Source: a virus | IMG/VR virus record: IMGVR_UViG_3300029319_000017 | Location: 1 to 64,000 of that record | Direction: 5' to 3' (one strand) | DNA: 64,000 bases | Shown: piece by piece, positions 39,132-57,866 of the stretch | Layout: each line of letters opens with the position of its first letter | How positions within the stretch are numbered: position 1 is the first letter of the stretch | Translations under genes and position numbers: made by a program | The notes under the pieces: generated by a model | What the model saw: the letters and a program-made list of their open reading frames with translations, nothing else | Database searches by the model: none | Told to the model about the DNA's origin: nothing

Positions 39132-42100
39132 TTAACACTTTTTTAACATTTTTCTACCCCCTCTTCCATATAAAGATCTATAACCTCCTTCTCTTTGATT
39201 GGTATTGTTGCTTAGTTTTTTAAGATAACCTGCAAATGCATTTGAATACTCGGGAGTACCTTTTTTATCTTCCATACCTGGATTCAGTCTTTGAAAGTCT
39301 AGCTCATGTGTATAAAAATTATCTAATACATTTGTTTGACCTGCAATAGCTCTTGATAAATCATCTTGTGCTTTATATTGTAGGTAATCAGCTCCCATAC
39401 CTGCTATACTTTGTACTGCATTTTGTACAGCCATTAACTTACGATCTTTAGTAGCAGCATCCGCAGCTCTATTAAACTCATCTACAGTTATACGATTTGC
39501 AATATTTTGTCTTGTGTTTTGACTGTTTATTGCAGCTTCTTGTTGTTGTATCTGAGCATTAGCTCTTGCTTCTGCACTACCTATTTGTACATCCTGCGCT
39601 TGTTTTTTACCCCATGATGCCATCTTAGCAGCAATACCTCCAGGGCCTGCTCCACTCTGCTCTATAAATCTACTCATTCCTCTATAGTTGCCTTCATTTT
39701 GTTCTCTTTCTGCATTAAATCTTACTCTATCTAAATGTGTTTCAGGAATTCTACCTGGCTCTGCCATATAGTCTGGTTTTTCTTTAAAAGCCATATATGC
39801 AGGAAGTAATTGTAATCCTGCTCCAAGTAATGGTATTCCTGCTTGTCCTAACCCTCTTAAAAATCCACTTCTCTTTTTAGTATTTTCTTCTTCCGCTGTA
39901 GGAGATTCTTCTTCTATTTCAGGTTCACCAGTCCATTGATATTCATCATCAGGATCTTCATCTATTACAATGTCTAAATAAGGATTAAATTGATATATAT
40001 TAGGATCATATGACCCTGGCTCTACTTCATAAATATCTACTTCTTGCAATTCACTAAATTCTTTTAAAGCATTTAATGTATCTATACCAAATTTACCATC
40101 TACACCTTGTTTATTTTTTCCTAAATCACCTTCTAATATATCTGTTTCTCTTCCACTAAAAAATGTTGGATTAGAATTTTTCAATTCTTCTGAAGGATTC
40201 ATTAAATTACTTTGCAGTAATTTTACATGCTCTGGATTTCTAGGATCAAATGTATCTAATCCTGTAATAGCAGCTGCTTCATCTAAATACTCTGCTATAT
40301 CTTCATCCGTTACTTTATTATATAATCCTGTAAATTCAGTTTTCTTTTTACTATCATTTTTTTTCTTATCATCATTTTTCTTATCATCATTGTTATTAGT
40401 TACAGGGTCATCATTTTTATTGTCAATCTTGTCAACAATTTCAAACGCCCCAAGTTCAGAATTATATCTAATTTCTTTACCTTCAGGAATCTCTATACTT
40501 GATAATGGTTGATATCCTTCTTGATCTAAAACACCACCACCATTTGCATACTTTTTTCTTTCGCCTCCAAGATCATACTTATCTCTACCAGCTGCTTTTT
40601 CTTGTATAGCTGCTAATCGTTCTATATCTTGTTGACTACCACCTTTTTTTAATATATCTTTATGTCTTTGCGCAAAAGATTTTCCTCCTAGTTTTAAATA
40701 ACTAGAGAAAAAATAATCGCTTCCTTGTACTTTATCCATAGTTTCTCCACCCTCAACTTCTGTCATAGGGTCTAATTTAATTCCACCTTGTTCATGTTTT
40801 TTACCAACAAATTCTGTTGCTCCTCCTGGTAATGGTTTTGCTACACCTCCATCTAATTGTTTAGTTCCTCCATGTCTATATCCTAACATCATAGTATTAG
40901 TAGGATCCATTATTGGCCCTGATTGAGATGGTCCAGATGCTGGTGGAACAACTAAAGGCATATTTTTGTTTGCAGCCATATGTTTATCTGTTTTAAGAGT
41001 ACTTTTTGCTGCAGTTTTACCTCCACTTGTTGCAACTTTAAGACTACTCCCAGTATTTACTAATGGTTTTATAGGAGTTTTAGCTAATTTACTTACACCT
41101 TTTATTCCTGCTTTAGCAAAAGATCCTCCCCAAGGAATAAATCCTAAACCAGCCATTCCTGCAGATTTTAGCGCATTCATATAATCACCTTCTTGAAGGT
41201 ACTTACGAGCATCATTTGCATCTAATACTCCAGCAGCAAATCCAGCTAGAGGATTAAACATTCCTGCTACATCAAGAGCTAATCTTGCTTTGTTAGGGTC
41301 TACAGGCCCTCCTACTTCTACCTTTTTTCCATCAGGTGTTCTACTAAAATCATACCCCCCTCCAACAAATTTTCTAGGACTATTTTCTTGACTTGCGTAG
41401 TTTAGGAGCCCGCCCTCCATATAAAAATTTCTGTATCCACCATCTTTATTCATCCTATCATTGTATATCATTTTTTTTAATTTGTTTGCGCGAGTTGCAT
41501 TGTAGTACCTGTTAAGAACAAATGGCTGAGCAAATTTTTCAGCCTCTTCTAAAGCTTCCTTTGTACCTTTTGGTTGACCTTGTTTTGCTAGATTTTCCAT
41601 CCTTTTTCTATCTCCTTCTCTGTATCCACCATCTTGATTTTGACTTCGCTTTAAAGCTGCATCTGTAGGAGCACCTTTACTGCCTGGCTTTCTCATTTTT
41701 TCACCTGATCCTGCTTTTATTCTTTTTCTTTTAGCGTGTATATTAGCCCAAAGACCTGGACGACCTCCTGTTCTTAAAGTTCCCATGTCAGATCCTGTAT
41801 ATTCTTTACCAGTTAAATTACCTGCAAATATAGCTTGATTAGCTTGTGCTTTTCTTGCTTCTTCTTCTGCCTCCATTTCTCTTGCTTCATCTCTAGCCTT
41901 TTTTCCTTTAAGACCGCTACTAATACCTCCTACTACTGCACCAACTCCTGCTCCAATTGCAGTACCAACTCCTGGTATAATACTACCTATTGTAGCTCCT
42001 GTTGCCGCACCTTTACCCATACCGCTTAATACAGTACCTGATGTTTCTCCTACATTCATCGTTGTAGCGTCATCATCATCAGAAACAGCAGTTATACCCT

Positions 42101-42605
42101 GTCCTACTAAATTAGCAGCTTGACCATATAAGTTAGCTTGACCTGCTGTCATACCTTCACCTGCTGCATAATTTTTTGCTGATTGCTCACCAAATATTTT
42201 AGCGTGCATGCCTCCAGGCGCATCAGCTGTACCATATTGACTTTTTAACAATTCCTCTTGATTCATACCAAACATATTTTTATCTTCTTTAAATCTTTCT
42301 GTAGCAAGACTTTGCAATTGAGATGCACCTTGGGTTAAAGATTGATTTAGCATTTGATTAGTTTGATTTCTTTGTGTTTGCTGTTGTTGAAATTGTTGTT
42401 GCCAAGGATTAGCCTGTATTTGAGCTAATTGATTTTCACCAGCATTTATTTGAGCTTGATTAACTTGTTCATACGAAGCTTGAGGTCCTGGATTTATCAT
42501 AGAAGTAGGTACAGTATTATTACCATACATACCTCCCATATTATAATAAGTTATTCTTCCTCCACGTTTGTAGAGTTTTCTTTTTTTAATTTTGTCTTTT
42601 TTCAT
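39132..42605 (-). CDS. modular virion cargo protein with repeated GG motifs, glycine zipper, HE.GG..EVEGGE motif and PG-binding-like domain
   Basis: Likely start MKKDKIKKRK (ATG at 42605); GAATGATIGSIIPGVGTAIGAGVG; KHEQGGI...EVEGGE; VKLLQ...GVDGKFG.DT..AL..F; located between the muzzle and cargo genes. Confidence 0.7.
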   Translation of the reverse strand: MKKDKIKKRKLYKRGGRITYYNMGGMYGNNTVPTSMINPGPQASYEQVNQAQINAGENQLAQIQANPWQQQFQQQQTQRNQTNQMLNQSLTQGASQLQSLATERFKEDKNMFGMNQEELLKSQYGTADAPGGMHAKIFGEQSAKNYAAGEGMTAGQANLYGQAANLVGQGITAVSDDDDATTMNVGETSGTVLSGMGKGAATGATIGSIIPGVGTAIGAGVGAVVGGISSGLKGKKARDEAREMEAEEEARKAQANQAIFAGNLTGKEYTGSDMGTLRTGGRPGLWANIHAKRKRIKAGSGEKMRKPGSKGAPTDAALKRSQNQDGGYREGDRKRMENLAKQGQPKGTKEALEEAEKFAQPFVLNRYYNATRANKLKKMIYNDRMNKDGGYRNFYMEGGLLNYASQENSPRKFVGGGYDFSRTPDGKKVEVGGPVDPNKARLALDVAGMFNPLAGFAAGVLDANDARKYLQEGDYMNALKSAGMAGLGFIPWGGSFAKAGIKGVSKLAKTPIKPLVNTGSSLKVATSGGKTAAKSTLKTDKHMAANKNMPLVVPPASGPSQSGPIMDPTNTMMLGYRHGGTKQLDGGVAKPLPGGATEFVGKKHEQGGIKLDPMTEVEGGETMDKVQGSDYFFSSYLKLGGKSFAQRHKDILKKGGSQQDIERLAAIQEKAAGRDKYDLGGERKKYANGGGVLDQEGYQPLSSIEIPEGKEIRYNSELGAFEIVDKIDNKNDDPVTNNNDDKKNDDKKKNDSKKKTEFTGLYNKVTDEDIAEYLDEAAAITGLDTFDPRNPEHVKLLQSNLMNPSEELKNSNPTFFSGRETDILEGDLGKNKQGVDGKFGIDTLNALKEFSELQEVDIYEVEPGSYDPNIYQFNPYLDIVIDEDPDDEYQWTGEPEIEEESPTAEEENTKKRSGFLRGLGQAGIPLLGAGLQLLPAYMAFKEKPDYMAEPGRIPETHLDRVRFNAEREQNEGNYRGMSRFIEQSGAGPGGIAAKMASWGKKQAQDVQIGSAEARANAQIQQQEAAINSQNTRQNIANRITVDEFNRAADAATKDRKLMAVQNAVQSIAGMGADYLQYKAQDDLSRAIAGQTNVLDNFYTHELDFQRLNPGMEDKKGTPEYSNAFAGYLKKLSNNTNQREGGYRSLYGRGGRKMLKKC

Positions 42606-57540: not shown

Positions 57541-57569
57541 GATTATTTTATTTTAAATTATATTTATAT

Positions 57570-57866
57570 TTACAAATCTAAAAAATCTTGGTAACTATAA
57601 GAAGCATTATTAGATCCACCTTCTCTATATTTGCTATAGCTTATATTTCTTTCTTTTCTGTCTTTTTTTGTTGTCTTTATATTACCACCTTTAGGCAATA
57701 CTGTTTTCTTTCCAGTTTTTCGTTTACCCATACCTGCTAATTTTCCACTAGCATCTCTTCTTACTGTTTTCTTTATTGTTCCGTCTTTGTTATATTTTAC
57801 TTTTATTTGACCACCGTCACTAGTTTTTGCCTTTTTAACTCTTTTTCGAGTACTAATATCTTTCAT
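57570..57866 (-). CDS. basic protein ending in GGSNNASYSYQDFLDL
   Basis: 98 aa, K/R-rich; KYREGG followed by the same terminal peptide as the neighbouring gene. Confidence 0.75.
   Translation of the reverse strand: MKDISTRKRVKKAKTSDGGQIKVKYNKDGTIKKTVRRDASGKLAGMGKRKTGKKTVLPKGGNIKTTKKDRKERNISYSKYREGGSNNASYSYQDFLDL

Follow-up and report, generated by a model that had tools for sequence, protein, structure and literature searches.

Results

A Gly-Gly motif in five late proteins

The DNA analysed here, referred to as the window, is a stretch of 64,000 nucleotides comprising bases 1-64000 of the 87,892-bp virus record IMGVR_UViG_3300029319_000017, a marine crAss-like phage for which a near-identity DNA search of the phage collection gave no match. 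Our subject is a short Gly-Gly motif that recurs in proteins of the long minus-strand late block of this phage. The motif is real, conserved and specific to linkers and termini of proteins that are probably internal to the particle. A sequence-only reading of the window had listed double-glycine strings in five late genes and taken them for a candidate processing or targeting system; all of these strings were found in the translations of five minus-strand open reading frames (ORFs), all of them members of the late block:

39132-42626, minus strand: 1164-aa protein, homologue of cargo protein C1 (crAss001 gp45), after the muzzle gene; 26 GG, 8 canonical [YFM]xxGG
49813-50253, minus strand: 146-aa basic protein; a ~40-aa basic mini-module and DUF6321 (PF19846, residues 77-144, E 7e-17), joined by KRYGG-CADC-MRSGG
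52569-52826, minus strand: 85-aa Lys-rich protein with three M-x-x-GG copies, of a fast-evolving basic low-complexity family
57193-57540, minus strand: 115-aa basic protein with FKMGG and MYKNGG, ending in a 16-residue tag that begins at GG
57570-57866, minus strand: 98-aa basic protein with KYREGG, followed by a 16-residue C-terminal tag

The 1164-aa ORF begins with GTG at 42626, and position 42605, formerly taken as its end, is the first ATG. Altogether, the five proteins contain 38 GG. The informative feature is a Y, F or M three residues before the first Gly, commonly preceded by K or R. This core of the consensus proposed earlier was kept, but NQDGG, NKDGG, QREGG, TLRTGG, KFVGGG and KRYGG do not fit it.

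The suspected enrichment was borne out. The five proteins have 15 copies of [YFM]xxGG where composition-preserving shuffles predict 2.27, and a count of 15 was reached in none of 5000 shuffles, the shuffle maximum being 8; the strict form [KR][YFM]xxGG occurs five times against 0.40 expected (0/5000 shuffles). The remaining 79 ORFs have 8 copies against 12.4 expected. A scan of all 84 ORFs, which removes the bias of proteins picked for the motif, had the 1164-aa protein at the top (8 vs 1.63, p=0.0002, about 0.02 when corrected for 84 tests), and the 85-aa (3 vs 0.29, p=0.0015) and 115-aa proteins (2 vs 0.07, p=0.0015) also stood out. The 98-aa and 146-aa proteins have a single canonical copy each, which is not significant alone (p=0.08 and 0.14). 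The claim of a motif common to five late proteins stands for the joint enrichment, but only three of the five are significant singly. That the motif is inconspicuous in replication proteins was confirmed: the 20 early plus-strand ORFs (5304 aa) have no copy, and the 51 late ORFs (21363 aa) have 23. The early replication genes occupy 489-17626 of the plus strand.

It could be argued that the motif has no function of its own and is a by-product of low-complexity sequence rich in K, G and M, of tandem duplication or of recombination scars between modules. The small proteins are indeed of low complexity with obvious tandem duplicates, and the two proteins that are not significant alone would be expected from such an origin. 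However, composition-matched shuffles never attain the observed count, the motif recurs in non-homologous contexts, and its positions are conserved across 22-25 diverged homologues of the 1164-aa protein. We consider this explanation quite improbable. The carriers had also been described as otherwise unrelated, which is too strong, since the 115-aa and 98-aa proteins have a common C-terminal tag and the 146-aa and 1164-aa proteins a common ~40-aa basic module.

The largest carrier is a homologue of cargo protein C1

The genes around the 1164-aa ORF and the two segments of its product that are discussed below are:

50723-51418: ring protein 2 (Pfam)
48849-49808, minus strand: tail ring protein 1 (PF24228, E 2.8e-56)
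42586-48849, minus strand: muzzle protein (PF25731 crAss_MUZ, E 3.1e-43)
41643-41762, minus strand: ~40-aa basic mini-module, residues 289-328 of the 1164-aa protein (phrog_16028, E 2e-20), between two GG seams
40578-40868, minus strand: predicted portal-bound domain, residues 587-683 of the 1164-aa protein (AF2 model and VIA-align)
37040-39130, minus strand: 696-aa protein that, following C1, occupies the place of cargo protein C2; its C-terminus is ...PTGG and then the stop codon

On the minus strand, ring protein 1 and the muzzle protein are followed by ORFs of 1164, 696, 4786 and 1666 aa. The 1164-aa ORF lies directly downstream of the muzzle gene and upstream of C2 and the giant RNA polymerase-associated genes, which is the place of C1; the corresponding gene order in crAss001 is gp43-gp50. 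BLASTP aligned residues 624-681 with residues 471-545 of gp45 (E 0.008), and weaker collinear matches covered the Gly-zipper/transmembrane (TM) region and a later segment. An AlphaFold (AF2) model of residues 570-710, built on a 22-sequence alignment, was confident at model residues 17-114 (predicted local distance difference test, pLDDT, >80 for 21-110), with flanks below 50. With VIA-align its best match was 7qog_M, the portal-bound domain of gp45, at Z 8.5 and a root-mean-square deviation of 2.9 A over 85 aligned residues with 32% identity; the next match had Z 3.2. Foldseek against the PDB and a sequence profile against the PDB did not find gp45, which VIA-align alone detected. Judged by this modelled fold, the 1164-aa protein is a homologue of the crassvirus cargo protein C1. 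For the 696-aa protein, scans of Pfam and PHROGs gave no family match beyond one weak PHROG.

The canonical motifs of the C1 homologue are found at the N-terminus, on both flanks of the portal-bound domain and at the C-terminus. The domain is bracketed by GYRHGG-TKQLDGG before and KYDLGG-ERKKYANGG after it. The GG just before the domain is invariant in 22/22 sequences, the doubled copy after it is present in most of the 22, and further conserved copies lie near the N-terminus (14/25 sequences) and near the C-terminus. In the full-length model 702 of the 1164 residues (60%) have a pLDDT <50. The earlier view that the motifs sit at module borders agrees well with this model, in which all 8 canonical motifs overlap segments of pLDDT <50 and the GG sites at 333, 396, 586, 687 and 1147 lie right at the edges of elements predicted to be structured. 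Glycine-zipper matches at residues 201-236 are below the Pfam cut-off (20.5 vs 25 bits), and this region aligns weakly with the TM region of gp45.

gp45 itself has FDTGG at 17, FAEGG at 260 and FAYGG at 559. The resolved domain of gp45 comprises residues 425-552, and the chain is modelled from residue 425 (PMC10172136); FAYGG is 7 residues past the end of this domain. The marine protein thus resembles crAss001 C1 as described by Bayfield et al. 2023 (PMC10172136) in gene position after the muzzle and in the portal-bound fold. The likeness extends to an N-terminal basic stretch with aromatic-x-x-GG that is followed by a Gly-zipper or TM segment, which in the marine protein is putative, and to an aromatic-x-x-GG directly after the portal-bound domain. 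It differs in length (1164 aa vs 842 aa), in the number of canonical motifs (8 vs 3, with 1.23 expected in gp45) and in its inserted modules, of which gp45 has none. The suggestion that the carriers are packaged is borne out in so far as the largest of them is homologous to C1/gp45, which is packaged in crAss001 virions. Presence of C1 in virions and its ejection are known for crAss001 only (PMC10172136), and that article nowhere mentions the motif, cleavage or a protease.

The motif in related phages

A search with a ring protein 1 profile yielded 42 related loci, each taken with flanks of 10 kb, in which 729 plus-strand ORFs were counted. Overall, [YFM]xxGG occurs 420 times against 187.6 expected. 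Homologues of the C1 family, encoded after the muzzle gene, have 121 copies against 36.7 expected, and ORFs without a match in the window have 167 against 44.9; the latter include motif-rich, fast-evolving Lys-rich proteins upstream of the ring genes. Some basic proteins of relatives carry 7 copies in 151-409 residues. Muzzle homologues show no excess (55 vs 53.1).

A comparison of 740 unique GG contexts from the C1 and basic classes with 1042 contexts from other proteins revealed a 5.5-fold enrichment of Y and a 2.8-fold enrichment of M at position -3 from GG. K is enriched at -4 and -2, the position two before GG being K or Q. After GG, the 740 contexts have no clear or strong residue preference; directly after it, I (2.3-fold), V (1.7-fold) and F (1.6-fold) are mildly enriched. 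The 1042 other contexts have no similar pattern. All four Gly codons are used at the motif, in 15 of 16 codon pairs, with a mild shift to GGT (chi-square p 0.0016 and 0.0095). This diversity argues for selection on the peptide rather than on a DNA repeat, and neither recent duplication nor DNA microhomology explains the motif. DNA microhomology was likewise rejected, on the same grounds, as the basis of module swapping. What stands of the sequence-only reading as a whole is that the motif is real, under selection as a peptide, restricted to late proteins and located in linkers where modules border on each other.

Two features of these proteins were seen in passing. The basic proteins upstream of the ring genes (L027, L022, L009, L003) have loops of the D-x-D/N-G-D-G type between motif copies, such as ...DLNGDN... 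and ...DMDGDGN..., which resemble EF-hand or dockerin proteins. Many probable cargo or basic proteins have a C-terminal Cys that is separated by no more than a few residues from a basic stretch or GG: ...KKC and ...WKC in the window (39132-39170, 49813-49830), ...GGKKC and ...GGKNC in relatives (L020, L022, L045, L078, L079), and ...NNC and ...EIC at the ends of halves of the giant protein described below.

Modules, seams and small basic proteins

Compared with the nearest relatives, whose ring protein is 88% identical, the C1 homologue of the window has a 109-aa insertion and a 232-aa deletion, each with GG at both ends. The insertion consists of two units, each ending in DGG followed by YR. 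One of these units is the mini-module at residues 289-328, which is missing from C1 of the nearest relatives L002 and L003, where the gap has GG on both sides. It was matched in 74 phage records, mostly of marine T7-like podoviruses, and is seen as a free-standing gene in L005, L006, L065 and L067. In the 146-aa protein it is joined to DUF6321; in L006, L065, L010 and L011 the two are separate adjacent genes, and in the five podovirus records examined the mini-module gene adjoins the DUF6321 gene beside scaffold, capsid or terminase and portal genes. No paper was found under the name DUF6321. At its N-terminus, the 85-aa protein is similar to gp29 (35 aa) of Pelagibacter phage HTVC168P.

In podoviruses of marine and fresh water, a trio of tiny basic genes stays together next to capsid genes (HTVC168P, L006 2882-3383; also L005, L065 and L067). 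Besides the ~40-aa basic module and DUF6321, the trio encodes a Lys-rich peptide of 35 aa; one copy, in L067, is unannotated.

A sixth carrier lies beyond the window:

genome 73622-74371 (L046 11622-12371), minus strand: 249-aa protein between portal and scaffold

In this protein, YQEGG and GGYR flank an insert of 83 aa that is absent from the nearest relatives. It has a conserved core of the STH..RHE..W.FPTLF type, and its look-alikes in the Atlas are unnamed viral clusters only. In other relatives the portal-adjacent gene encodes 240-480 aa and is very variable.

The motif-carrying basic proteins contain 28-32% K+R, and this would be in line with a DNA-contact repeat, in which Lys clusters, a Met/Tyr wedge and a Gly-Gly turn neutralise and bend the packaged DNA and the small proteins act as core-like condensers. 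Such a role would also suit the up to 7 tandem copies in 151 aa and the location of DUF6321 and the ~40-aa module next to capsid genes in unrelated marine podoviruses. On the other hand, the podovirus copies of these modules are mostly without the motif, which was present in two small proteins among five records, and no DNA-binding fold or family was found. A DNA-contact repeat is therefore, in our view, very unlikely.

A C-terminal tag and the scaffolding protein

The 115-aa and 98-aa proteins end in an identical 16-residue tag that starts at GG (57193-57243 and 57570-57620). The core of the tag recurs on two L003 proteins; relatives have instead tags of the GG-F-L-E-P type that end in acidic-hydrophobic residues. 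The scaffolding protein of the phage (genome 72378-73526) has an acidic N-terminus, a coiled middle and an Asp/Leu-rich end that resembles the tag, and gp31 of crAss001 also ends in a similar Asp/Leu-rich peptide. We suspect that the tag mimics the end of the scaffold to enter the procapsid. Genomes with scaffolds ending in a D-[IL]-D-D-L-x-L-type sequence mostly have basic proteins with acidic-hydrophobic C-terminal tags, and nine genomes with FDPDQLD-type scaffold ends have no such tags in the 10 kb examined. Because these genomes fall into two clades, the covariation counts as about one event. In a complex prediction, the major capsid protein (12-row alignment) was paired with the C-terminal 44 residues of the 98-aa protein (4-row alignment); three runs, without controls, scored 0.42, 0.01 and 0.02.

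The tag after GG is of the same type as the capsid-targeting sequence (CTS) of T4 internal proteins and the cargo-loading peptides of encapsulins; in both, a short terminal peptide set off by a flexible linker takes the cargo into a shell of the HK97 fold. The GG motif differs from these in being internal and repeated rather than one terminal signal. It is the tag, rather than GG itself, that looks most like a loading signal; capsid loading may be an alternative role of the motif.

Is the motif a cleavage site?

The original proposal included a co-occurring protease that cuts after GG. This was not supported: among 73 proteins compared with Pfam there is no Ulp1, adenain or C39-type peptidase family, PHROGs gave none either, and the cysteine peptidase families C5, C48, C57, C63 and C39 are absent from these proteins, although a divergent enzyme could escape. 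The Pfam scan covered 72 of the 84 listed ORFs and ORF 6992-7897; 60828-61241 was compared with PHROGs only, and eleven short ORFs were in neither scan. The resemblance to adenain sites did not hold either. The adenain consensus is (M/I/L)-X-G-G-X, with a hydrophobic residue two before GG, and the enriched Y or M is three before the first Gly, one position further out. Adenain of adenovirus and pS273R of African swine fever virus (ASFV) process polyproteins and core proteins at GG-X, and C39 peptidases cut double-glycine leaders. The likeness to these systems lies in Gly-Gly at borders of small basic virion-internal proteins; the differences are the lack of a C5, C48, C63 or C39 match and the hydrophobic residue one position further out.

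One candidate of another kind was found:

22665-37025, minus strand: 4786-aa virion protein with HExxH at 2275 and the RNA polymerase motif DFDID at 3692
29799-30398, minus strand: candidate zincin-like signature within it, HEGFH (residue 2275) with a Glu-rich helix further downstream

This HExxH is the only one in the 84 ORFs. Positions H66, E67, H70 and E116 of the alignment (A6) are each conserved in 9 or more of the 10 relatives, and a profile of the region matches residues 2096-2222 of crAss001 gp47 (E 1.3e-19 among 5 proteins). The region does not match PF18818 at E up to 1 or any PDB sequence, its 10 members have no Pfam family in common, and the genome has no match to PF18818 or PF18838. 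Its Atlas look-alikes gave leads of the LPD type, with LPD23 in only 18-20% of members. A private repeated peptide was looked for in the giant proteins, and none was found.

By sequence, the candidate signature is in keeping with the MPTase of polyvalent proteins and with the zincin-like domain described beside the virion RNA polymerases of crAss-like phages. The polyvalent proteins of Iyer et al. 2017 (PMC5512222) offer a parallel: here, too, large proteins that are packaged or injected consist of exchangeable modules, HExxH with a downstream Glu is joined to a virion RNA polymerase, which is also the case in N4, and look-alike clusters have LPD domains. Unlike there, PF18818 and PF18838 are without a match, and the small basic proteins are not polyvalent proteins. 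The main text of that paper uses neither 'linker' nor 'glycine' and so describes no conserved linker motif. In joining a zincin-like signature to DFDID, the giant protein resembles gp65/gp66/gp67 of phi14:2 and the 'huge polyprotein' of some crAss-like phages (bioRxiv 10.1101/2020.03.07.982082). The part of that work at hand proposes no cleavage sites, and the giant protein of the window has neither GG enrichment nor a motif at the junction tested.

These findings bear on the idea of a cleavage site: a host protease, or the zincin-like domain packaged alongside, would cut cargo strings and basic proteins at their seams, either within the capsid or once injected, and thereby set free small modules and basic peptides. 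In its favour, the motifs are placed in exposed linkers where modules meet, each module with its own copy, modules joined via GG here are separate genes elsewhere, the protein in the C2 position ends in GG, and the HExxH and Glu helix are conserved in a virion protein and also in gp47. Zincins often prefer hydrophobic P1' residues, with which the mild enrichment of I, V and F after GG would agree. Drobysheva et al. describe fused crAss-like polyproteins as 'likely cleaved' and orthologues of gp65 as having a zincin-like protease (bioRxiv 10.1101/2020.03.07.982082), and Iyer et al. proposed autoprocessing by zincin-like domains (PMC5512222).

Against this, cleavage was observed nowhere, and the HExxH region has no Pfam or PDB sequence support as a peptidase. 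The giant protein is not enriched in the motif (1 vs 1.86 expected). In the relatives G014 and G010 it is split into two genes about 100 residues before HExxH, and at the split point, the sole testable polyprotein junction, the window has an acidic linker without GG. The motif also occurs a few residues from natural N- and C-termini, where cuts would free only 2-7 residues. By a spacing alignment, the modelled gp45 chain (PMC10172136) includes the GG homologous to the invariant seam, and the virion gel bands of crAss001 at 85, 100, 150, 270 and >300 kDa are compatible with uncut cargo (PMC6235969). The N4 virion RNA polymerase (vRNAP) contains a zincin domain and is packaged without processing (PMC5512222). 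Taken together, cutting at the seams appears rather unlikely and the link between the zincin-like signature and the GG motif is weak. The narrower proposal that the seam peptide is the recognition site of the co-travelling zincin-like domain, which, within the capsid or shortly after injection, would break down C1, the basic proteins and the protein next to the portal into small modules and Lys-rich peptides, is more doubtful still.

Other genes of the phage

Beyond the window, Pfam detected a ring 3/4 protein, the crassvirus major capsid protein and a P22-like portal, and the large terminase was detected with PHROGs. Three further genes were seen in the window:

6992-7897, plus strand: spore photoproduct lyase-like radical SAM protein (PF20903, E 1.3e-26) in the replication block; the ORF overlaps a DnaB-like helicase gene
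51420-52547, minus strand: calcineurin-like phosphoesterase/DNA repair exonuclease-type gene (phrog_704, E 4.9e-62) in the tail gene block, between ring protein 2 and the 85-aa basic protein
54225-54605, minus strand: thioredoxin-fold protein (PF00085, E 3.7e-9) without a CxxC motif and with a signal-peptide-like N-terminus, encoded within the group of small late genes

Discussion

The conserved peptide described here, with the core K-[Y/M/F]-x-x-G-G and frequently in a double form, xxGG-[V/I/L]-[R/K]-K-[Y/F]-x-x-GG, may be regarded as a short linear motif in disordered Lys-rich linkers and termini. It is tempting to speculate that it is an uncut joint and handle of particle-internal proteins, and we tentatively favour this reading, at somewhat less than even chances, over a cleavage site, a DNA-contact repeat and a by-product. 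Its carriers, that is C1, the portal-adjacent modular protein and the set of small basic proteins, would be kept inside the particle. The motif would provide a flexible seam for each small module, so that a string of modules could be packed and later threaded through portal and tail, while the aromatic or Met and the Lys side chains would make repeated weak contacts with a common internal partner, which could be cargo, the portal/tail lumen or DNA. Since each module brings its own copy of the motif, modules could be inserted, lost, fused or split at the seams without breaking packaging. That the small basic proteins are in the particle, that the motif binds and that it is not cut is what we infer from the data above.

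Several points weigh against an uncut joint and handle. The binding partner of the proposed handle is hypothetical, and the virion presence of the small basic proteins is presumed. A conserved zincin-like signature is co-packaged, the 696-aa protein has a natural GG end, and the literature expects cutting of crAss-like polyproteins (bioRxiv 10.1101/2020.03.07.982082). As the gp45 sites at 17, 260 and 559 are outside the resolved density, the structure leaves cutting possible there. Finally, 35 indels of at least 20 aa were counted in 15 pairwise C1 alignments, with many gaps in poorly alignable stretches: 11 of 70 indel boundaries were at most 4 residues from GG where 8.1 were expected, and 3 of 35 indels had GG at both ends where about 0.5 were expected. 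From this count, seams are sometimes, but not generally, exchange points; that indels favour seams in general is unsupported, and only the largest clean indels do so. That most indels are away from the seams is also a point in favour of a mere by-product.

In the searched literature on crassvirus cargo, proteolysis, scaffolding and metallopeptidases, no description of the GG seam motif was found. For this genome, the present analysis adds the fold-level assignment of C1, the link of the small modules to marine podoviruses, a negative junction test and an indel count. If the seams were indeed cut by the co-packaged zincin-like domain, this would be a new maturation system in tailed phages and their counterpart of core-protein processing in adenovirus and ASFV; it would also account for the presence of C1 pieces on either side of the crAss001 portal, with no need for twelve chains to run through the channel. 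Crassviruses rank among the most abundant phages, and a short conserved peptide at the joints of their cargo proteins is a concrete experimental handle. The peptide would also explain how cargo proteins quickly gain and lose small modules, some of which they have in common with unrelated marine podoviruses.

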